A stretch of DNA of 64,000 nucleotides, from contig JASGHI010000004.1 of assembly GCA_049841155.1 (NCBI GenBank), forward strand, positions 433,477 through 497,476. The letters are read 5' to 3'. Below the pieces are notes generated by a model that saw only the letters and a program-made list of their open reading frames with translations, had not been told where the DNA came from and did no database searches. This document shows positions 10,374-29,898 of this stretch, one piece after another. Source of the stretch: Steroidobacteraceae bacterium (GTDB taxonomy: Bacteria > Pseudomonadota > Gammaproteobacteria > Steroidobacterales > Steroidobacteraceae). Position 1 is the first letter of the stretch. Every line of letters begins with the position of its first letter. The position numbers and the translations under genes are program-made.

Positions 10374-10955
10374 ATGTCTGACATTAGAGTGGAAGTTCTA
10401 AGCAGGCGCAGCCTTATGGCGGGCGGCACGTCGGTGATCGCGGGGTTGTTGCTGGATGGAGCGTGGCTGTCGCAGGCGCATGCGGCCGGTGCGCGTTACC
10501 AGTCCGATCCGCGTCATGCCTTCGCCGACCGGATCAGCGATTTGTTGATACCCACCACGGATACGCCTGGTGCGTCCGCCGCGGGTGTTGCGGGTTTCGT
10601 GTTGCTGGCGCTGGACAGCGGCGTGAGCGGCCTGAAGCCGGCGTTGCTGGATGCGGTGCAAGCTGAGCTGGATGCGTCCGCTGGCGGAAAGTTCGTGGGT
10701 CGGCCTCGCAATCGCCAGGCCGGGTTGCTTGCGGAGCTGGACCGCAAGGCGTTTGCGGCGGCAAGTCCGGCGGAAAATTCGGCGGAATTTGCATGGCGGC
10801 GGATCAAGTCAGCGATTGTTGCCGGCTACTACACCAGCGAGATCGGTGGGTCGAAAGAGCTGATCTACGAGCCGGTGCCCGGCAAATTCGAGAACATCGC
10901 GCTGACGGCTGAATACCGTGCTCGTTCCAATGACGGTCAGGGAGGGGCTATCTAA
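10374..10955 (+). CDS. Tat-signal small subunit, gluconate 2-dehydrogenase subunit-3 family
   Basis: 193 aa with a twin-arginine motif (SRRSLMAGG). Its stop overlaps the start of the GMC flavoprotein gene (ATCTAATG), the typical pairing for this family. Confidence 0.7.
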   Translation: MSDIRVEVLSRRSLMAGGTSVIAGLLLDGAWLSQAHAAGARYQSDPRHAFADRISDLLIPTTDTPGASAAGVAGFVLLALDSGVSGLKPALLDAVQAELDASAGGKFVGRPRNRQAGLLAELDRKAFAAASPAENSAEFAWRRIKSAIVAGYYTSEIGGSKELIYEPVPGKFENIALTAEYRARSNDGQGGAI

Positions 10956-12631
10956 TGCCAGACTTCGACGCCATCGTCGCCGGCTCCGGTATCACCGGCG
11001 GGTGGGCGGCCAAGGAACTTACCGAGCGCGGCCTGAAAGTGCTGATGATCGAGCGTGGCCCGAATCTCGAGCATCGTACCGACTACAAGACCGAGTTTAC
11101 GCCTCCGTGGGAGCTGGACTTCCGCGGCTACACCGATCCCAAGTTGCTGGCGGGTTCGAAGCGCGTGCAGAAGTACTCGCGCATGAACGAGTGGGTCAAG
11201 GACATGTTCGTCGATGACGACATCGAGACCTACCAGACGCCCCCCGAGAGCAACTTCCGCTGGATGCGCGGCTACCACCTCGGGGGTCGTTCCGTGATGT
11301 GGGGCCGGCACAGTTATCGCATGAGCGAGGCCCATTTCGCGGCCAATGCCAATGACGGCCATGGCGTGGATTGGCCCGTGCGGTATCGGGACGTCGCGCC
11401 CTGGTACGACCATGTCGAGCAGTTTATTGGAGTCAACGGGACCGTCGATGGCATTGCCAGCTTGCCGGACGGCAAATATCAGCCCTCGATGGGCTTCAAT
11501 GCCGGCGAGCAACGGCTGGCGGATCTCATCAGGGCCAAGTATCCGGACCGTCGCCTGCTGCCGGGCCGCACAGCGAACCTCACCAAAGCGATCGGTGATC
11601 GTTCTCCATGCCAATATCGCAACCAGTGCGGGCGCGGATGCTCGTACGGGGCGTATTTCAGCACGCAAAGCTCCACCTTGCCCGCGGCGCGGGCCACGGG
11701 GCTGCTCACATTGCTGACTGACACGATCGTCGAAACGGTTGATCATGATCCGAAGACCAGGCGTGCCACCGGCGTAAGGTTGCGCAACGTCAATACGGGC
11801 GAGCGTTCCACGGCCACAGCGAAAATCATTTTTCTCTGCGCCGGGTCGGTCAACAGCGTGGCGATACTGTTGCGCTCGGTATCCGAGACGATGCCGGGTG
11901 GTCTGGGCAACTCGGGCGGTGTGTTGGGCAAATACTTCATGGACCATGCTTTCGGCCCCAACGTAACCTCGACCATACCGGGCCTCGGTGATCGCATGTA
12001 CCTCGGGCGCAAGCCCAACGGGCTTACCATGCCGCGTTTCGTCAACATGTCCGGGCAGGAGACGGATTTCCTGCGCGGCTATGCCTTTCAGGGAGGAGGC
12101 CAGCGGCAGGGATGGAGCCGCGGCGGCAATCTTCCCGGCATAGGTAGTGATTTCAAGCACCAGTTGCGGCAACCGGGTGAGTGGATGATATCGCTGGAGC
12201 CCTCCATCGAGTGTCTGCCCCGCAAGGAGAACGCGATCACTGTCGATTTCCGCAAACCGGACAAGCACGGCCTGCCCACAATTCGTATCGATCTGCGCTG
12301 GAGCGACAATGAGCAGAAAGCCGCCGTGCATGCGGTGAACGAGGCAAAGGCGATACTGTCGTTGCTCGGCGGCCAGATAACCAATGCCCGCGCGGAGATT
12401 GCGCCGCCGGGCACGGCGATCCACGAGATGGGCGGGGCATGCATGGGTCGGGATCCGCGTACCTCGGTGACCAATGCCTACAACCAGGTGCATGACGCTC
12501 TGAATGTATTCGTCACCGACGGCGCCTGCATGTCGTCGACAGGGGACCGCAATCCTTCGCTGACCTACATGGCGTTGACGGCCCGTGCCGCAGCCGCGGC
12601 GGTGGATATGTTCAAGCAGGGCACTCTGTGA
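10955..12631 (+). CDS. GMC-family FAD dehydrogenase large subunit (gluconate 2-dehydrogenase flavoprotein-like)
   Basis: 558 aa with N-terminal AIVAGSGITGGWAAKEL FAD motif and the C-terminal GMC block (IHEMGGACMG...FVTDGA). No signal peptide of its own, so probably co-exported with the Tat subunit. Confidence 0.8.
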   Translation: MPDFDAIVAGSGITGGWAAKELTERGLKVLMIERGPNLEHRTDYKTEFTPPWELDFRGYTDPKLLAGSKRVQKYSRMNEWVKDMFVDDDIETYQTPPESNFRWMRGYHLGGRSVMWGRHSYRMSEAHFAANANDGHGVDWPVRYRDVAPWYDHVEQFIGVNGTVDGIASLPDGKYQPSMGFNAGEQRLADLIRAKYPDRRLLPGRTANLTKAIGDRSPCQYRNQCGRGCSYGAYFSTQSSTLPAARATGLLTLLTDTIVETVDHDPKTRRATGVRLRNVNTGERSTATAKIIFLCAGSVNSVAILLRSVSETMPGGLGNSGGVLGKYFMDHAFGPNVTSTIPGLGDRMYLGRKPNGLTMPRFVNMSGQETDFLRGYAFQGGGQRQGWSRGGNLPGIGSDFKHQLRQPGEWMISLEPSIECLPRKENAITVDFRKPDKHGLPTIRIDLRWSDNEQKAAVHAVNEAKAILSLLGGQITNARAEIAPPGTAIHEMGGACMGRDPRTSVTNAYNQVHDALNVFVTDGACMSSTGDRNPSLTYMALTARAAAAAVDMFKQGTL

Positions 12632-12747: not shown

Positions 12748-12792
12748 TTGTCGAGCCGCGGCGCACGGGACTATACTGTATCGTATGGGCAG
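12748..12792 (+). promoter_or_regulatory. Putative sigma70-type promoter of module A (TTGTCG-N18-TATACT, then ATGGGCAG)
   Basis: -35-like 12748-12753 and -10-like 12772-12777. The architecture repeats at 15756-15801 upstream of the paralogous gene. Confidence 0.45.
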
Positions 12793-12835: not shown

Positions 12836-13252
12836 ATGGTTAGCAAGAAATCGGCAGCGCTGGTGCTGGTCGCCCTGCTGGGGGCGGCGGCTGCACAGGC
12901 GCATCATTCGTTTTCGTCCACTTTCGATGCGCACAAGCCTATCGAGATCACCGGTGTGATCACCAAGGTGGAATGGATCAACCCGCACAGTTATGTCCAC
13001 ATGGACGTGAAGGACAAGAGCGGCAAGACGGTGCCGTGGGCCTTCGAGAGCCTGCCACCGGCGATGTTCAAGCGCGCCGGGCTGAAAAAAGAGATGCTGC
13101 CCATCGGCTCCACCGTGACCATCACGGGCTTCGGCGCGAAGGACGGCACACAGGCGCTGGGCTGGATCAAGAAGTTCAAGTTCGCCGATGGCCGCGAGAT
13201 CCAGGTGACGGCTGATAATCCGAGCGACGCCAATTTCGTCGACGTCCACTAG
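12836..13252 (+). CDS. Exported DUF6152-like protein, copy A (predicted mature N-terminus HHSFS)
   Basis: 138 aa. Signal peptide ends AAQA, followed by HHSFSSTFD. Shares HHSFS..FD..KP..TK.E.INPH..V..DV...VTI.GF..DG...ADG with the copy at 15849-16241. Confidence 0.75.
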   Translation: MVSKKSAALVLVALLGAAAAQAHHSFSSTFDAHKPIEITGVITKVEWINPHSYVHMDVKDKSGKTVPWAFESLPPAMFKRAGLKKEMLPIGSTVTITGFGAKDGTQALGWIKKFKFADGREIQVTADNPSDANFVDVH

Positions 13253-13280
13253 CACGCGCGCCTACCGGGGGGATTACAAC

Positions 13281-14141
13281 ATGATCATCAGACTGCGATT
13301 GGGTGAGGCGCTGGCGGCGGCGGTGTTGGCGGCGCCGCTGCTGGTTCTGGGCGCTGAAGGTGGCGGTAATGCGATGCAGGAGCGCGTTGCGCAGGAAGCA
13401 GCCAAACCGACACCGAAAACGGCATCGGGCGTGCCGGATCTGAGCGGCTACTGGAGCGTCGTGGGCGGGTTCGTCAACCCGAGCGCTATTCCGGGCACGG
13501 CGGTGACCGCCGACGGCACGACCACACGGCCGATCGCCGGCGCAGAGATCGAGGAGCACCAGGGCAACAAGGCGGGTGTCGCGCGTCGTCTGGCCGATAC
13601 CGCGGCCCGGCCGACGTACAAGCCACAGTTCGACGTCAAGGCGAAGGCCAACTGGGATCGTGCCAATTTCCTCGATCCCGGCTATAGCTGTCAGCCGCTG
13701 GGCGTGCCGCGCATCGGCGTACCGAACGAGATCGTGCAGACTCCGACGACGCTGTACTTCCTGTATCAGAACCACAACATCTACCGCGTCGTGCATCTCG
13801 ACCGCGGTCACGACCCGGATGCCGAACGCCTGCCCATGGGCGAATCGGTCGGCCGCTGGGAGGGCGATACACTGGTGGTCGACGTGACCTCGCTCCCGGA
13901 GGGGGACGAGACCTGGCTGGATGGCGATGGCTCGTACCACAGCGCGGACATGCACGTGATCGAGCGCTTCACCCGCAAGGGCAACACGCTGAACTACGCG
14001 CTGACGGTCGAGGACCCGATCTTCGCCGCGCCGTTCACGCCCAAGCCCAAGACGCTGCTGCTAGGCAACGAACACGTCGGCGAAGACTACCCATGCACGG
14101 AGAGGGACCTGCCGCACATGGTGACCAAGGAGCGTCACTGA
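13281..14141 (+). CDS. Secreted protein of unknown function, 'WEGDTLV' family, paralogue 1
   Basis: 286 aa with an N-terminal signal. Motifs PDLSGYW, C..LGVPR, YRVV, GRWEGDTLVVDV, WLD..G..H...MHVIERFT and YPCTE are shared with 16318-17160 and 17168-18427. Confidence 0.7.
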   Translation: MIIRLRLGEALAAAVLAAPLLVLGAEGGGNAMQERVAQEAAKPTPKTASGVPDLSGYWSVVGGFVNPSAIPGTAVTADGTTTRPIAGAEIEEHQGNKAGVARRLADTAARPTYKPQFDVKAKANWDRANFLDPGYSCQPLGVPRIGVPNEIVQTPTTLYFLYQNHNIYRVVHLDRGHDPDAERLPMGESVGRWEGDTLVVDVTSLPEGDETWLDGDGSYHSADMHVIERFTRKGNTLNYALTVEDPIFAAPFTPKPKTLLLGNEHVGEDYPCTERDLPHMVTKERH

Positions 14142-14293
14142 GCCAGATGCGCGGTTGAGGGACGCGCGGCAGCGGCGCCTATTGTCCGCATGACCCGTGG
14201 CGCAGCAGGCATGAAGCGTCACGGGTCCATCGCTGCCGGCATCTGCGGACCCGTCCAGGAATTGAATACAAGAGCCGTCTTGGGGGAGCCGTA

Positions 14294-14800
14294 GTGCTGG
14301 AACAACTCTCGAACCTGCCTTTGTCCGTGTGGATCCGTGAGTCCACGGACATCTATGCCTTCACGCTGATCCTGACGCTCCATGCCATCGGGCTGGCAAC
14401 GGTGGTGGGTATCAGCACGGTGGTCGGACTGCGGCTGCTGGGAGTGGGCCCCGGCATTCCGCTGGTGCTCCTGAAGCGCTTCTTCCGCGTGCTGTACGTC
14501 GGCTTCTGGATCAATGCGGTTTCGGGGCTGATGCTGTTCATCGCCGAGCCGGTGAAGATGGTGGAGATGCCGGCCTTCTGGGCCAAGATGTTCTTCATCG
14601 CCTGCGGCCTGGTGGTGGTGCGCCTGCTCACGGTGCGCGTATTCAGTGACGCGCAGATGATGGCCAGCAACATTCCGAACCAGCAGGCGCGCAGGCTCGC
14701 GTGGGCGTTGCTGGGGTGCTGGTACATGGCGCTGATCGTCGGACGGCTCACGGGCTATCCGGAGATGGTCGGTCAGATGCTCAGGGCCATCGGCCTGTAA
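14294..14800 (+). CDS. 4-TM integral membrane protein, unknown function (paralogue of the next gene)
   Basis: 168 aa, GTG start preceded by GGGGGAG. Four hydrophobic helices. The TM1 motif LHAIGLATVVG....LRLLG is shared with the next ORF. Confidence 0.65.
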   Translation: MLEQLSNLPLSVWIRESTDIYAFTLILTLHAIGLATVVGISTVVGLRLLGVGPGIPLVLLKRFFRVLYVGFWINAVSGLMLFIAEPVKMVEMPAFWAKMFFIACGLVVVRLLTVRVFSDAQMMASNIPNQQARRLAWALLGCWYMALIVGRLTGYPEMVGQMLRAIGL

Positions 14801-14815
14801 GCGGGGAGGGAGCGG

Positions 14816-15334
14816 ATGGACTGGTTCAGACACATTCTCGATATCCACGCGATGCAGGCCTATGTGAACGGTCACGCCTGGGTGTGGTCGGTATGCGAGA
14901 TGATCCACTACGTGGGCATGTCGCTGATCGTCGGCCTGATCGGGCTGCTGGATCTGCGCATCCTCGGCTTCTGCAAGAGTCTGCCGATCGGCGCGCTCAA
15001 GCCTTTCGTGCCCATCGCCATTGCCGGCTTCGTCGCCAACCTGATCACGGGCTTCATATTCGTCTCCGGCAATCCGGTGGGCGGGCCGGGCGCCTACCTC
15101 GACAACCTGTCATTCCAGTGCAAGCTGGTGGTGCTGGGGATCGCGTTCATCAACCTGGTCATCTTCCGGCTCACGGGGCTCGAGCACGAGGTTTACGCCA
15201 CACCAGCCAACGGCGATGCACCGGGCAGCGCTAAAGTGATCGCGGTCGTCTCCCTCCTCAGCTGGGCGTTCATCATCTTCTTCGGCCGCATGCTGATGTA
15301 CAACGACACGCTGCTGCTGTTCCTGGGACTTTGA
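14816..15334 (+). CDS. 4-TM integral membrane protein, unknown function (paralogue of the previous gene)
   Basis: 172 aa with RBS GGGAGGGAG. TM1 IHYVGMSLIVG....LRILG, GF..N...G in TM2, F..K in TM3 and GR...Y in TM4 all align with the previous ORF. Confidence 0.65.
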   Translation: MDWFRHILDIHAMQAYVNGHAWVWSVCEMIHYVGMSLIVGLIGLLDLRILGFCKSLPIGALKPFVPIAIAGFVANLITGFIFVSGNPVGGPGAYLDNLSFQCKLVVLGIAFINLVIFRLTGLEHEVYATPANGDAPGSAKVIAVVSLLSWAFIIFFGRMLMYNDTLLLFLGL

Positions 15335-15347
15335 TCCGGCACCGCCT

Positions 15348-15366
15348 GCGCCGCCGGTCGCGGCGC
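15348..15366. terminator. Short GC hairpin between the convergent membrane-protein gene and the HiPIP gene
   Basis: GCGCCGC-cggtc-GCGGCGC (7-bp stem) lies in the 45-nt convergent spacer. Confidence 0.3.
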
Positions 15367-15379
15367 GGGTGGCGTTACG

Positions 15380-15703
15380 CTAGCGGCTGCCGCGCAGCTT
15401 CCAGAGCTTGCACCATCCGGCGGCGTTCACCAGGCGGCCGGGCACAATGGAGCAGCCGCGCTGGCGTCCCGAGCCGAATTCGATGAACGAACAGGTTGTG
15501 CAGCTCTGTCCGCGTTTGTAGGTGGGATGGGTGCCCACGTTCACCGTCTTGGCGTCCGCGACATAATCAATGGTCCTGGCCGCCGGTTCTTTCTCGTCCA
15601 GCGGCGTACGTGCTGCCGCTGCGGCCAGCGCCCAGCGCGGGGCGCTGATCGTCGCGGCCAGCGCGAGTGCGCGCAGCAGTCTGCGTCGTGCGATGAAGCT
15701 CAT
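15380..15703 (-). CDS. High-potential iron-sulfur protein (HiPIP), Tat-exported
   Basis: 107 aa. Twin-arginine signal (ARRRLLRALALAA). Cys pattern C-x2-C-x12-C-x13-C with the last Cys preceded by Trp (GWC), diagnostic of a HiPIP [4Fe-4S] site. Confidence 0.85.
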   Translation of the reverse strand: MSFIARRRLLRALALAATISAPRWALAAAAARTPLDEKEPAARTIDYVADAKTVNVGTHPTYKRGQSCTTCSFIEFGSGRQRGCSIVPGRLVNAAGWCKLWKLRGSR

Positions 15704-15755
15704 GTGCGGGATTGTAGCAATCCGCGCGGCGTGCAGGCCGCGCGTACGTGAATGG

Positions 15756-15801
15756 TTGTGGCCGTGCCGCTCAATACGTTATAGTATGGAAAAATGGGCA
15801 G
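15756..15801 (+). promoter_or_regulatory. Putative sigma70-type promoter of module B (TTGTGG-N18-TATAGT, then ATGGGCAG)
   Basis: -35-like 15756-15761 and -10-like 15780-15785. The ATGGGCAG motif at 15794-15801 matches 12785-12792, and the downstream leader shares GCG.TT.CGCC and AATCG blocks with module A. Confidence 0.45.
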
Positions 15802-15848
15802 CGCGATTTTCGCCGCTGCATCGTGGGGGAATCGTCATCGGAGGGTTT

Positions 15849-16241
15849 ATGAGCACTTTGCGTCGTGTATGGATCGCGGGCGCCGTGCTGCAGCTGGGAG
15901 TCATGGCTGCAGCGCAGGCGCATCATTCGTTTTCGGCGGTGTTCGATGGCACCAAGCCCGTTACCCTCGACGGCACCGTCACCAAGTTCGAGTTCATCAA
16001 TCCGCACGGATGGGTGACATTGGACGTGCCTGGCGCTGCCGGTACACCGGCGGCCACGTGGCGTGTCGAGGTGGCCAACCCGAACGCGCTGATCCGCCTC
16101 GGCTGGCGCAAGGACAGCCTCAAGCCGGGCGACAAGGTCACCATTCAGGGCTTCCGCTCGCACGATGGTTCGAACACCGCCTTCGGCAAGGAGTTCAAGC
16201 TGGCGGACGGCAAGACCGTGCTGAACAGCGTGGCTCCGTAG
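15849..16241 (+). CDS. Exported DUF6152-like protein, copy B (predicted mature N-terminus HHSFS)
   Basis: 130 aa, RBS GGAGGG. Signal peptide ...MAAAQA followed by HHSFSAVFD. The 21-nt stretch caggcgcatcattcgttttcg is identical to copy A. Confidence 0.75.
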   Translation: MSTLRRVWIAGAVLQLGVMAAAQAHHSFSAVFDGTKPVTLDGTVTKFEFINPHGWVTLDVPGAAGTPAATWRVEVANPNALIRLGWRKDSLKPGDKVTIQGFRSHDGSNTAFGKEFKLADGKTVLNSVAP

Positions 16242-16317: not shown

Positions 16318-17160
16318 ATGCGCAGCATGCATCTGATTGGCATTTGCGCCGCGTTGGCGCTCGGTGCGGCCGCGAGCGTCGCGTCGGCCTATTCGCCGGG
16401 CAAGCTTTACGACGGCAAGACGCCGGATCTGCGCGGCATCTGGCAGGCACGCGGCACGGCGTACGTGAACATCGAAGGCCACAAGGGCGGCAAGGGCGTG
16501 GCCCCGTCGCGGAGCATCATCGTCGATCCCGCGGACGGCAAGATTCCGTACAAGCCGGAGGCGCTGGCCAAGCGCGACGAGAACTTCAGGAATCGCAACG
16601 AGGCCGACCCATCGCTGCGCTGCAGCCAGGCGGGCGTGCCGCGCATCACCTATCTGCCGACGCCGTTCCAGATCGTGCAATCGCCGGGGTACACGGCCTT
16701 CGTGTATCAGGACAACCACTCCTACCGCATCATCTATCCGAGCACCAAGCCGCACCTCACCGGCGTCGACTGGTGGATGGGCGACTCGCGCGGCCACTGG
16801 GAGGGCGACACGCTCGTGGTCGATGTCACGACGCAGAACGACCTGACGTGGCTGGACGCCTCCGGCAACCCTCACAGCAGTGACATCCACGTGGTCGAGC
16901 GCTACACGCCGACAGGCCCCGACACGATGACCTATGAGGCGCGCATCGAGGATCCGAACACCTACACCAGGCCCTGGACGCTGCGCACGACGCTCTACCG
17001 CAACACGGCCAAAGGCGCGCGCATCATCGAAGACGAGTGCCTGGAGGACATCCATGGCGTGTTCCGGCACATCTCGCCGACCGATCCGGCCAACCTCCTC
17101 CGCAACAACTATCGGCGCTGGTTGCTGCCCGCCGATGGCGCAGCGCCGGCCAACAAGTGA
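16318..17160 (+). CDS. Secreted protein of unknown function, 'WEGDTLV' family, paralogue 2
   Basis: 280 aa from the ATG at 16318 (RBS GGGAGGGAG), with a signal peptide ...ASVASA. Motifs PDLRGIW, C..AGVPR, YRII, GHWEGDTLVVDV, WLD..G..H...IHVVERYT and DECLE. Confidence 0.7.
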   Translation: MRSMHLIGICAALALGAAASVASAYSPGKLYDGKTPDLRGIWQARGTAYVNIEGHKGGKGVAPSRSIIVDPADGKIPYKPEALAKRDENFRNRNEADPSLRCSQAGVPRITYLPTPFQIVQSPGYTAFVYQDNHSYRIIYPSTKPHLTGVDWWMGDSRGHWEGDTLVVDVTTQNDLTWLDASGNPHSSDIHVVERYTPTGPDTMTYEARIEDPNTYTRPWTLRTTLYRNTAKGARIIEDECLEDIHGVFRHISPTDPANLLRNNYRRWLLPADGAAPANK

Positions 17161-17167
17161 GCCACCC

Positions 17168-18427
17168 ATGAATACTCGCGAACAGTTCATGCAGAGGATG
17201 ACGCTGATGGCGGCCGTCGCGACCATCGCGCTGGCCGGCCTGGTGCAGAGCGCAGCGGCGCAAGTGGCGGTCCAGGGTACGGTAACGGCGGCGCCGGAGG
17301 AGGCGGCTGCTCTGCCCATTCCGCGTCTGCCGGACGGCAAGCCGGATTTCCAGGGCACCTGGTACAAGTCGCGCGGCTATCAGCCCAATGGCACGGTCGT
17401 CGTCGCGCCCGGCGGCGGCCGCGCCGCCGCCGAGCCGGGTAATACGGCTGGCAATCAGCCTCAGGGTGGTGCCGGTGCGGCGGCCGGCGGTGGTGGTGCC
17501 GCCGGCACGGGGCCCAATCCGTTCGGCCTCTCGTCGGCCGAGAACGCCGAAGTGTTCCTGCTGCACGGGGTGAAGATCCCGTACCGGCCCGAGGCCATGC
17601 AGGAGAAGCGCTGGCGCGCCGTCAACCAGTATCTCGACGGCGAGCCGCGCTGCCACCTCGCCGGCGTGCCGCGCTCGGCCGAGCAGCCGCCGTATCCGCA
17701 CATGATCATCCAGGACGACAAGACCGTCACCATCCTGTACGAATACGTGCACGAGCCGCGCATCATTCCGATTACCAGCGAGCCGCACCCGAAGAATTAC
17801 CGCGCGTGGGACGGCGATTCGCGGGCCCACTGGGAGGGCGATACGCTGGTCATCGACGTCAGCAACTTCAACGGCCGCAGCTGGCTCGACATGACCGGCA
17901 ACTTCGTCGATGAAAACCTGCACGTGGTCGAGCGCTACACGATGACGAGCGGCAACACCTATCTGTACGAAGCGATCCTGACCGATCCGACCGTTTTCAC
18001 TGAGCCGTTGAAGATCAGTTTCGAGTTGGTGCGCCAGAAGGACGAGGACCAGATCATCGAATACAGCTGCCTCGAGGGGGAGAGTGACCGCCAGCATTAC
18101 ACCGCGCAGACCGGCGGCGTGAAGGCCGACGCGTTCCGGGATACCGCCGTCAGCACCGTAGTGCATGCCGGCGAAGCGACGAGTGTGCATGGCTGCCTGC
18201 GCGGCGATCTGGTCGATGGTGCGGTGAAGTACTCGCTGGAACTGCGCCCGAAGGGCAAGGTGCCGGTGAGCCTTGCCGCTGGCGCACAGCAGGGTCTGCG
18301 TGAACTGGTCGATCGCGACGTGTGGCTGAACGGCTCGTGGAAGGCACAGCCCGGCAAATCACCGTTCGAGGTGACCAGCGCGCGGGCTCAAGCCGAAGGC
18401 TGCGCCTGGGACGGCAAGAGTCCGTGA
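17168..18427 (+). CDS. Secreted protein of unknown function, 'WEGDTLV' family, paralogue 3 (Gly/Ala-rich insert and extra C-terminal domain)
   Basis: 419 aa. Signal ...QSAAAQ. Motifs PDFQGTW, C.LAGVPR, PRII, AHWEGDTLVIDV, WLD..G......LHVVERYT and YSCLE. Roughly 100 extra C-terminal residues. Confidence 0.7.
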   Translation: MNTREQFMQRMTLMAAVATIALAGLVQSAAAQVAVQGTVTAAPEEAAALPIPRLPDGKPDFQGTWYKSRGYQPNGTVVVAPGGGRAAAEPGNTAGNQPQGGAGAAAGGGGAAGTGPNPFGLSSAENAEVFLLHGVKIPYRPEAMQEKRWRAVNQYLDGEPRCHLAGVPRSAEQPPYPHMIIQDDKTVTILYEYVHEPRIIPITSEPHPKNYRAWDGDSRAHWEGDTLVIDVSNFNGRSWLDMTGNFVDENLHVVERYTMTSGNTYLYEAILTDPTVFTEPLKISFELVRQKDEDQIIEYSCLEGESDRQHYTAQTGGVKADAFRDTAVSTVVHAGEATSVHGCLRGDLVDGAVKYSLELRPKGKVPVSLAAGAQQGLRELVDRDVWLNGSWKAQPGKSPFEVTSARAQAEGCAWDGKSP

Positions 18428-28989: not shown

Positions 28990-29802
28990 CTATCTAGGCC
29001 GTGTGGGCGCGTAGCCGAGGTGCATGCCGGCGTCGATGATCATGAACTCGCCGGTGACGTGGCGGCTTTCGGGGCCCGCAAAGAACAGGATCGCTTCGGC
29101 GATGTCTTCGGGCATCGATGCCACTTGCAATGGCACGGATCTGGCGACGGCTTCGGCGGTCTGCGATTCGGCTGTGTCACCTTGATATTTCGCGAACCAG
29201 CCCGAGCCGATATAGCCGGGGCAGACGACATTGACGCGAATGTCGGGCGCGAGGGCACGGGCGAGCGACAGCGTCATCGTGTTGAGCGCCCCCTTGGTGG
29301 AGGCGTATGCGATGGACGAGCCCATGCCGGTCACGCCCGCGATCGAGGATACATTGACCACGGAGGCCTTGCCCGCCGCAACAAGATGCGGCTGGGCGGC
29401 GCGGATCATCTGGTAGACGGCGACGACGTTGACTTTGTAGAGGCGCAGGAAGTCTTCGGCGTCGAGCGCGTCGAGGTCGGAATGCCTGGCGAACTTGGTT
29501 ATGCCTGCATTGTTGATCAGGATGTCGAGGCCTCCGAACCTTTCGACGGCTGCGCCGACGAGTGCGCGGCAGTCGGGATCTTCTGCGACGTTGGCCCTCA
29601 CGGCAAAGGCTTCGACGCCGAGCCTCTGGCATTGGGCGACGACTTCATTGGCGGCTTCGGCGCTGGAATTGTAGTTGATGCAGACGTTGACGCCGCGACG
29701 GGCCAGGCCGACCGCAGTTGCCGCGCCGAGGCCGGTGCCCCCGCCCGTGACGATGGCGCGCTTGCCTTTCATGCTGTTGATATCCGTCATTGCCGGTTCC
29801 AT
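28990..29802 (-). CDS. Short-chain dehydrogenase/reductase (SDR)
   Basis: 270 aa with TGGGTGLGAA cofactor motif, NNAG, and the S...Y.ASK catalytic triad region. Confidence 0.88.
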   Translation of the reverse strand: MEPAMTDINSMKGKRAIVTGGGTGLGAATAVGLARRGVNVCINYNSSAEAANEVVAQCQRLGVEAFAVRANVAEDPDCRALVGAAVERFGGLDILINNAGITKFARHSDLDALDAEDFLRLYKVNVVAVYQMIRAAQPHLVAAGKASVVNVSSIAGVTGMGSSIAYASTKGALNTMTLSLARALAPDIRVNVVCPGYIGSGWFAKYQGDTAESQTAEAVARSVPLQVASMPEDIAEAILFFAGPESRHVTGEFMIIDAGMHLGYAPTRPR

Positions 29803-29898
29803 ACTTTAACGTATCGTTGGTGCAGGTGCAGCAGGAAAGTCCGTGGGAAGTTCTTGCTCCAAGTATGATCACACGCGCAGTTCTGCAACCGGAGGCTG

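Follow-up and report, generated by a model that had tools for sequence, protein, structure and literature searches.

The DUF6152 genes and their cluster

We analyzed a stretch of 64,000 nucleotides from contig JASGHI010000004.1 of a Steroidobacteraceae bacterium (the window), in which two genes of the DUF6152 family (Pfam PF19649) encode small proteins whose mature chains are predicted to begin with two histidines. The initial annotation of this DNA, made from the sequence alone, had recorded two DUF6152-like genes here, and the Pfam matches bear it out: gene A (positions 12836..13252, plus strand, 138 amino acids; E=1.7e-27) and gene B (15849..16241, plus strand, 130 amino acids; E=1.1e-30) score 95.8 and 106 bits, far over the PF19649 gathering cutoff of 27 bits, and both belong to the family. 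For gene B, a longer open reading frame beginning at an upstream ATG (15570) was rejected; the true start is the ATG at 15849, with GGAGG before it. The two proteins are 46% identical over 107 residues and, as the same annotation had described, both translations contain AAAQA directly followed by HHSFS and share an INPH motif. In gene A, the predicted signal peptide occupies 12836..12901, the codons for His1 and His2 12902..12907, and the codon for the histidine of the NPH motif 12986..12988 (all plus strand); the corresponding parts of gene B, also on the plus strand, are 15849..15920, 15921..15926, and 16005..16007.

Each DUF6152 gene of the window is followed by one or more paralogues of a second protein family, and a tandem pair of membrane protein genes and a gene for a HiPIP lie in the same cluster. 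In what follows, D stands for a DUF6152 protein, X for the partner family, which has no Pfam domain, and M for a DUF6644-type membrane protein. With these letters, the window order is D-X-M1-M2 between the starts of the two modules, with the HiPIP gene on the minus strand before gene B. No NCBIfam model matches any of seven cluster proteins. We compared the cluster with two samples of loci. The first is anchored on D and comprises 80 loci in GTDB species genomes (Acidobacteriota, Alpha-, Beta-, and Gammaproteobacteria). The second is anchored on DUF6644 and consists of metagenome contigs, of which 36 loci of >=6 kb served for distance counts and 37 loci for a separate tally; its counts are not independent because the loci are related to one another. 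Two readable orthologues of gene B, at loci L091 and L092, have 87% and 81% amino acid identity to it.

An invariant His-His pair behind the leader

We found that the sampled DUF6152 proteins keep the His-His pair almost without exception. When 1.84 billion cluster representatives (50% identity) were searched with a profile, the family proved to comprise 18,945 clusters at E<=1e-3, and in the best 148 of these 18,945 the pair stands behind a hydrophobic leader without exception (148/148), with the NPH motif present in 142. Among closer homologues, of which 153 were retrieved from 5.8 billion proteins, the pair is found in 119 of the 120 matches listed, the exception being an N-terminally truncated fragment. 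Only five positions are invariant in an alignment of 70 sequences, namely H25, H26, G42, P52, and G94 (gene B numbering, as for the other DUF6152 positions). Conservation of at least 90% in the same 70 sequences extends to A24 (the −1 residue), F28, A30, D33, T43, V44, N51, H53, G65, W71, E74, L81, G85, G107, D120, and G121, so that D33, N51, H53, and E74, along with W71, are the near-invariant polar residues. For the three histidines that the initial annotation had proposed to align across the family, the outcome is invariance of the first two and at least 90% conservation of the NPH histidine.

The leaders of 260 DUF6152 sequences suggest that signal peptidase cuts directly before His-His, in which case the mature chain would start with the pair. 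Of the 260 sequences, 249 satisfy the (−3,−1) rule right before His-His and 248 (95%) have Ala at −1; a hydrophobic core is present in 250 and Lys or Arg in the n-region in 255, with a median prefix of 23 residues. The earlier proposal of a cut at this point is supported by the rule and by the nearly constant Ala, but it had overlooked a rival site: a second (−3,−1)-compatible position, after HHxFx, lies five residues downstream in 238 of the 260 sequences, and because of it the cleavage position is ambiguous by sequence rules alone. If the enzyme cut at this later site, before the Ala that follows it in 220 of the 260 sequences, His-His would belong to the leader and the mature protein would have no N-terminal histidine. 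We regard this as very improbable. The c-regions of leaders are not normally invariant across phyla, whereas His-His is 100% conserved; Ala precedes His-His in 95% of sequences as against 64% for the alternative site; and the median leader length of 23 suits the upstream site.

Proteins with two DUF6152 domains bear on the same question. Ten occur among the representatives (the two-domain proteins include P0241, P0242, P0250, P0262, P0272, P0275, P0287, and P0320), and 4 of the 10 keep an internal HHSY..YD motif (HHS[YF]..YD) in the second domain. These four second domains have no signal peptide or hydrophobic leader ahead of them and have lost the NPH histidine; in the remaining two-domain members, the pair itself was lost from the second domain. 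Because internal domains without a signal peptide keep His-His, the pair appears to be part of the folded domain and not of the leader, which favors cleavage before His-His over the later cut.

Constraint on the protein rather than on the nucleotides

The initial annotation had reported that the 21 nucleotides encoding QAHHSFS are identical in genes A and B, and the two copies are indeed exact matches, at 12896..12916 in gene A and 15915..15935 in gene B (both plus strand). The window contains no third copy of this string, CAGGCGCATCATTCGTTTTCG, nor any further match at <=2 mismatches, and 100 shuffles gave none. The accompanying claim that the identity reflects nucleotide-level constraint does not hold, because the orthologues and other family genes use other codons at the motif. 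Specifically, L091 and L092 each differ from the string at 3 of 21 positions and read CAT CAC TCG TTC there, and across 102 DUF6152 genes (loci L001-L080 and the window) the codons are mixed, with CAT at 58-59% for His1 and His2 and TTT at 33% for Phe4. The exact 21 nucleotides are thus not conserved across independent lineages (L091, L092, and the 102 family genes), and the identity is specific to this genome rather than a conserved nucleotide element.

Of the 53 degenerate residues that are identical between the products of genes A and B, 30 are encoded by the same codon in both, and the longest unbroken stretch of such codons, 10 in length, takes in the motif. By a hand estimate for a stretch chosen post hoc, the chance of sharing all 7 codons given 7 identical residues is ~0.5-0.8%. 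Nucleotide identity between the two genes is therefore only weakly non-random, whereas the family-wide invariance makes the motif clearly non-random at the protein level. We also considered the string as a functional nucleotide element, for example a structured RNA or a signal for translation or regulation, that would owe nothing to constraint on the protein. The motif does include codons that are scarce in this genome (TTT 8%, CAT 38%), and in the 102 genes CAT is enriched at His1 and His2, where it makes up 58% as compared with 26% of the other His codons of the same genes (Fisher p=4e-11). The GC content of third codon positions, however, is lower in the first ~28 codons of these genes (0.70 versus 0.79), a common bias of the 5′ parts of genes, and this bias, the different codons of L091 and L092, and the mixed codons of the family leave a nucleotide element extremely improbable. 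The drop is ordinary 5′-end bias, and the CAT enrichment sits on top of it. The 21-nucleotide identity is best read as a coincidence that 5′-end bias made more likely, or as the product of a very short conversion tract between the paralogues, and the constraint, as judged from the codons, acts on the protein and not on the nucleotides.

Predicted fold of DUF6152

An AlphaFold2 model of the gene B protein, built from the 70-sequence alignment, reaches a confidence (pLDDT) of 87 and has the order of elements of an OB fold, with strands at residues 32-48, 54-60, and 69-75, a helix at 78-83, and strands at 96-104 and 110-118. Foldseek places the OB domains of Rim1/SSB, PriB, and LysRS as its best matches in the Protein Data Bank (PDB), with E from 6e-4 and TM scores <=0.73 on the target. 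DUF6152 is accordingly predicted to be a five-stranded OB barrel whose third and fourth strands are separated by a helix. In this model, N51-P52-H53 map to the β1-β2 loop and W71 and E74 to β3, where they would form the usual ligand face of an OB fold. Sequence searches of the PDB, with single sequences as well as profiles, returned nothing significant for DUF6152, X, or DUF6644.

The lipocalin-like partner X

Gene A is followed by X1 (13281..14141, plus strand, 286 amino acids) and gene B by X2 (16318..17160, plus strand, 280 amino acids) and X3 (17168..18427, plus strand, ~419 amino acids, start codon checked). The paralogues are 40-43% identical in pairs (X1/X2 40%, X3/X2 43%), and X3 carries a C-terminal extension of ~110 residues that is absent from X1 and X2. 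X3 starts 7 nucleotides past the stop of X2, which suggests that the two are translationally coupled. X1 has a GxW motif and an invariant Cys pair but no match in Pfam or NCBIfam, and X as a family has none even at E<=10; among >7,256 homologues, none carries a Pfam domain. We found that 101 diverse members conserve the GxW motif (91-93% in the family), two Cys at 100%, Q121, R137, E194, R195, D212, and E238. In the AlphaFold2 model of X2 (pLDDT 79), residues 117-228 form eight strands in succession; the model resembles FABP, CRABP, and nitrophorin weakly (Foldseek E ~0.02, TM ~0.5 on the target), and we tentatively predict from it that X is a lipocalin- or calycin-like barrel. X-X fusion proteins also exist. 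The idea that His-His is a sorting tag common to D and its partners was rejected, as X proteins lack such a motif.

Compared with Blc, YceI, and ZinT, X shares the predicted eight-strand barrel, a GxW toward the N-terminal side, and a Cys pair of the disulfide type; it differs in its weak structural similarity to known lipocalins, in having no Pfam match, and in its length of ~280 residues with a long helical N-terminal part. YceI is encoded beside a cytochrome b561-type membrane protein, a pairing that resembles the arrangement of X with DUF6644.

The linkage of D and X recurs across the sampled genomes: X lies <=6 kb from D in 69 of the 80 D-anchored loci, and on the same strand within <=300 nucleotides in 63, in the orders D-X, X-D, X-X-D, and D-X-X. 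No conserved third gene stands beside D-X in these loci. The flanking genes are mixed and include PQQ dehydrogenases, TonB-dependent receptors, which adjoin some modules, lactonase-like proteins, esterases, and metallo-beta-lactamase-fold proteins. A plasmid of Croceibacterium atlanticum, for instance, has the gene order D-D-X-TonB receptor.

This linkage is open to a reading without metal. X would bind a hydrophobic or aromatic small molecule and D would bind or pass on the same or a related ligand; the cluster of His-His, NPH, Glu, and Trp would then be a binding or acid-base site, and the pair would have its role in periplasmic catabolism, together with PQQ and GMC dehydrogenases and esterases, or in TonB-dependent uptake. 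The adjacency of D and X on one strand in 63 of 80 loci across Acidobacteriota and three proteobacterial classes, the lipocalin hallmarks of X, and neighbors that are mostly catabolic or periplasmic enzymes and not metal genes are all consistent with it, as are the internal His-His motifs, which need no free amino end, and the usual ligands of OB folds, which are oligonucleotides, oligosaccharides, and other non-metals (PMC10656224). We nevertheless consider such a ligand-handling pair rather unlikely, as it leaves unexplained why His-His sits exactly at the predicted cleavage site in every single-domain member, none of our data point to a ligand, and the likeness of X to known lipocalins is weak.

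Some observations concern the neighborhood of individual modules. In the window, genes for a Gluconate_2-dh3 small subunit and a GMC flavoprotein dehydrogenase (10374..12631) lie directly upstream of gene A, with a carboxylesterase gene upstream of this pair. Related membrane-bound dehydrogenases usually also have a cytochrome c subunit; none was noticed with the GMC pair in the annotated stretch, where no search was aimed at one. At another locus (L081, a metagenome contig), a divergent DUF6152 protein of the HHSF-AMFD type (P0117) has no X partner. Its gene directly precedes an ABC transporter composed of an ATPase, an SBP_bac_11/8/6 binding protein, and a 562-residue permease, and genes for an AtzD/TrzD-type ring-opening amidohydrolase and an amidase follow downstream of the transporter.

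We also noted a palindrome, ATAC-N6-GTAT, that occurs three times in the window as against 0.08 expected. One copy (12773..12786) lies 50 nucleotides upstream of gene A and overlaps a sigma-70-like TTGTCG-18-TATACT; a second (15774..15787) lies 62 nucleotides upstream of gene B, between it and the HiPIP gene; and the third (29801..29814) is intergenic, between genes for a short-chain dehydrogenase and an alpha/beta-hydrolase. Orthologue L091 preserves the gene B copy and its surroundings, CAATACGTTATAGTATGG, letter for letter. The palindrome might serve as an operator or form part of a promoter.

The DUF6644 membrane pair and its electron carriers

M1 (14294..14800, plus strand, 168 amino acids, GTG start) and M2 (14816..15334, plus strand, 172 amino acids) each have about four predicted transmembrane segments. 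Neither reaches the 27-bit cutoff of PF20349 (DUF6644): M1 matches weakly at 18.5 bits, and M2, the second of the tandem pair, has no match and was assigned by profile search. A profile made from M1, M2, and their relatives returns almost only PF20349 proteins, and 37 of 38 aligned members match PF20349 at E<=1, with the gathering cutoff not applied. On these profile matches, M1 and M2 are divergent relatives of DUF6644. The M family has invariant Arg47, Lys98, Trp143, and Gly150-Arg151, as well as an invariant His that lies in the first hydrophobic segment.

DUF6644 genes are usually paired, and tandem pairs were seen in further loci besides the window. We found D within <=6 kb of DUF6644 in 31 of the 36 DUF6644-anchored loci, on the same strand and within <=300 nucleotides in 15. 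On plasmid pTAV3 of Paracoccus versutus, D is followed by DUF6644; a Sphingomonas locus (L066) has the order M-M-D; and Bryobacteraceae loci have the order peroxiredoxin, M, M, cytochrome-c-like protein, D, X. Seen from D, the link is rarer. DUF6644 is near only 5 of the 80 D-anchored loci, which indicates that most D-X copies stand alone and that about one copy per genome has the membrane pair. At loci L086 (3923..4276) and L090 (2036..2386), a conserved secreted protein of ~117 residues (MKINKL...) without a Pfam match is encoded near tandem DUF6644 pairs; no DUF6152 gene stands immediately beside the pair at either locus.

The gene for the HiPIP (15380..15703, minus strand, 107 amino acids; PF01355 E=3e-17, 63 bits against a cutoff of 22), which has a twin-arginine signal, forms a divergent pair with gene B. 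Two close relatives, L091 and a JGI contig, show this pair as well; the HiPIP is lineage-specific, since only the window and these two orthologous loci carry the HiPIP/DUF6152 pair, and none of the 80 D-anchored genome loci has one. In Acidobacteria, a class II cytochrome-c-like protein takes the position that matches that of the HiPIP in the window. In the tally of 37 DUF6644-anchored loci, X was found in ~25 and a 130-residue protein with a C-terminal CxxCH, weakly matching Cytochrome C' (E=8e-4, below the cutoff), in 13.

These carriers raise the possibility of an electron-transfer module, in which the tandem DUF6644 proteins would hold a b-type heme between the invariant histidines of their first hydrophobic segments, a HiPIP or class II cytochrome c would move periplasmic electrons together with D, and D would hold a redox metal or a His-ligated heme. 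Consistent with this, the HiPIP gene lies inside the cluster in the window and at the two orthologous loci, the CxxCH protein recurs in 13 of 37 loci, and peroxiredoxins and PQQ dehydrogenases flank some loci. DUF6644 members also match DUF2214 weakly (10 of 38, best E=5e-6) and UPF0093/HemJ very weakly (2 of 38, E ~0.03), HemJ being a dimeric membrane protein with b-type heme (PMC13564367). The HemJ likeness is a lead only. Given that this link is so weak, that DUF6152 has no known heme-binding motif, that the HiPIP is confined to one lineage, and that 75 of the 80 D-X loci have neither DUF6644 nor a carrier gene nearby, we consider electron transfer as the function of the module distinctly unlikely. 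It would overlap with metal binding by D if the redox center were copper.

A possible metal site at the amino end

Our best reading of DUF6152, which we hold tentatively, is that the free His-His end binds a metal. The pair is invariant at the predicted cleavage site; a histidine directly after the signal peptide marks metalloproteins in unrelated folds (PMC12537917); periplasmic metal carriers with an OB fold exist (PMC10656224); and D is linked to a membrane protein in a pairing like that of CopC and CopD. The initial annotation had recognized the N-terminal histidine as a metal-ligand pattern, for which there is experimental precedent in other families (PMC12537917). In that study, published in 2025, experiments established a conserved histidine right behind the signal peptide as a mark of metal-binding proteins, with real Ni- and Cu-binding members in four unrelated families, and TonB-dependent receptors adjoin the Ni-binding DUF4198 as they do some DUF6152 modules here. 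CusF and SilF are described as the only OB-fold proteins with metal binding as their sole function (PMC10656224).

We propose that the products of genes A and B are periplasmic OB-fold proteins that are exported by the Sec pathway and probably cut by signal peptidase I right before His-His. Chains that begin with a free NH2-Xaa-His bind Cu(II) strongly through three nitrogens, and the chelate of the histidine brace, which is histamine-like, arises from NH2-His. A transition-metal ion, most likely Cu(II)/Cu(I) and possibly Ni or Zn, would probably be chelated by the free amino end together with His1 and His2 (NH2-His-His), and the near-invariant NPH histidine, perhaps with Asp33 or Glu74, may complete the site. 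In a brace of the LPMO/CopC type, where the His1 amine and imidazole and a second His side chain give T-shaped N3 coordination, H53 would be the candidate for that second histidine. DUF6152 would be one subunit of an envelope module with one or two copies of the lipocalin-like periplasmic X, to which one module copy per genome would add the tandem DUF6644 pair, often with a small soluble electron carrier (the HiPIP in the window, the class II cytochrome-c-like protein in Acidobacteria). The analogy to CopC-CopD, YcnI-YcnJ, and anglerase-HupE/UreJ suggests that D may capture a metal or hold it at the membrane pair, from where it would be handed on or used as a redox center.

Several observations weigh against a metal site. 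Besides the second compatible cleavage site, the four internal His-His motifs lie mid-chain, so that a free amino group cannot always be required; the N-terminal segment (residues 21-30) is modeled at low confidence (pLDDT 58); and X has no conserved His among its 101 diverse members. The 25 commonest Pfam families of 136 flanking proteins include no metal pump, metallochaperone, or metal regulator, and Fur-, Zur-, CueR-, and NikR-like boxes are not enriched over shuffles upstream of 111 D/X clusters, a weak negative from a crude scan with consensus strings. Membership in known copper families was tried and rejected as well. DUF6152 aligns with E. coli YobA at an hhalign probability of 9% over 18 columns and has no CopC Pfam match, it reaches 6% with CusF/SilF and has no conserved Met, and M1/M2 reach 1% with E. 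coli YebZ as a representative of CopD, a comparison of limited sensitivity with a single-sequence template.

Comparison with known systems

The closest parallels are in organization. Like CopC, YcnI, and PmoF1, DUF6152 proteins are small, beta-rich, and predicted to be Sec-exported with a mature His1, and a further conserved histidine or carboxylate could complete a site; their genes, too, often stand beside genes for small multi-pass membrane proteins (CopD, YcnJ, and here DUF6644). They differ in their predicted OB barrel, where those proteins have a cupredoxin-like or Ig-like sandwich, and in the invariant His at the second position. Regulators of the cop or ycn type and pumps for copper are also absent from the surroundings of DUF6152, for which copper is the predicted metal. 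The "signal-strapping" families DUF4198, DUF6702, Ang-1, and Ang-2 likewise have a conserved histidine directly after the signal peptide and TonB receptors or membrane permeases as neighbors, and a role in metal capture has been proposed for them (PMC12537917). These are beta-sandwiches with His1 conserved at 79-100%, whereas DUF6152 combines a predicted OB fold with an invariant His-His and a lipocalin-like partner. DUF6152 is not among the four families of that paper, and the term is absent from the main text and the supplements searched (PMC12537917). We found no paper naming DUF6152, PF19649, or DUF6644.

CusF and SilF are small periplasmic OB-fold proteins, as DUF6152 is predicted to be. 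The metal site of CusF, a His/Met/Met/Trp site, is built from β2 and β3, near where DUF6152 keeps NPH, Trp71, and Glu74. DUF6152 differs in having no conserved Met in the 70-sequence alignment and no cusCBA-type pump nearby. Lytic polysaccharide monooxygenases (LPMOs) are secreted and share with DUF6152 the N-terminal His, predicted in the latter, and a second conserved His; DUF6152 is much smaller and has another fold, with no carbohydrate-active neighbors seen and no sign of catalysis. To our knowledge, all known examples of the histidine brace or of an N-terminal His have beta-sandwich folds.

Implications for the family

Proteins with an N-terminal His are an active field that includes the LPMOs, CopC, YcnI, and the signal-strapping families of 2025. 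DUF6152 is not rare: it comprises ~19,000 clusters, and genomes of soil Acidobacteriota and of sphingomonads often carry it in several copies. Should the metal reading be wrong, an invariant His-His at the predicted cleavage site still calls for explanation. In the most far-reaching reading, DUF6152, X, the DUF6644 pair, and the small carrier would make up a new periplasmic metallo-redox system, widespread in soil Acidobacteriota and Proteobacteria, with a brace-type copper center that is formed by His-His on an OB fold and fed with electrons through a heme-b membrane dimer and the HiPIP or cytochrome c, and that acts on, or is loaded through, a small molecule held by X; we regard this as speculative and improbable.

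DUF6152, the large X family without a Pfam domain, and DUF6644 are here newly described as three families tied into one conserved module. This module offers a defined set of genes for joint expression or deletion, and its cultured carriers include Paracoccus versutus, Novosphingobium, and Croceibacterium. If the free His-His end does bind a metal, DUF6152 would add to the N-terminal-His proteins one that has an OB fold, carries its His twice in a row, and comes with conserved partners.

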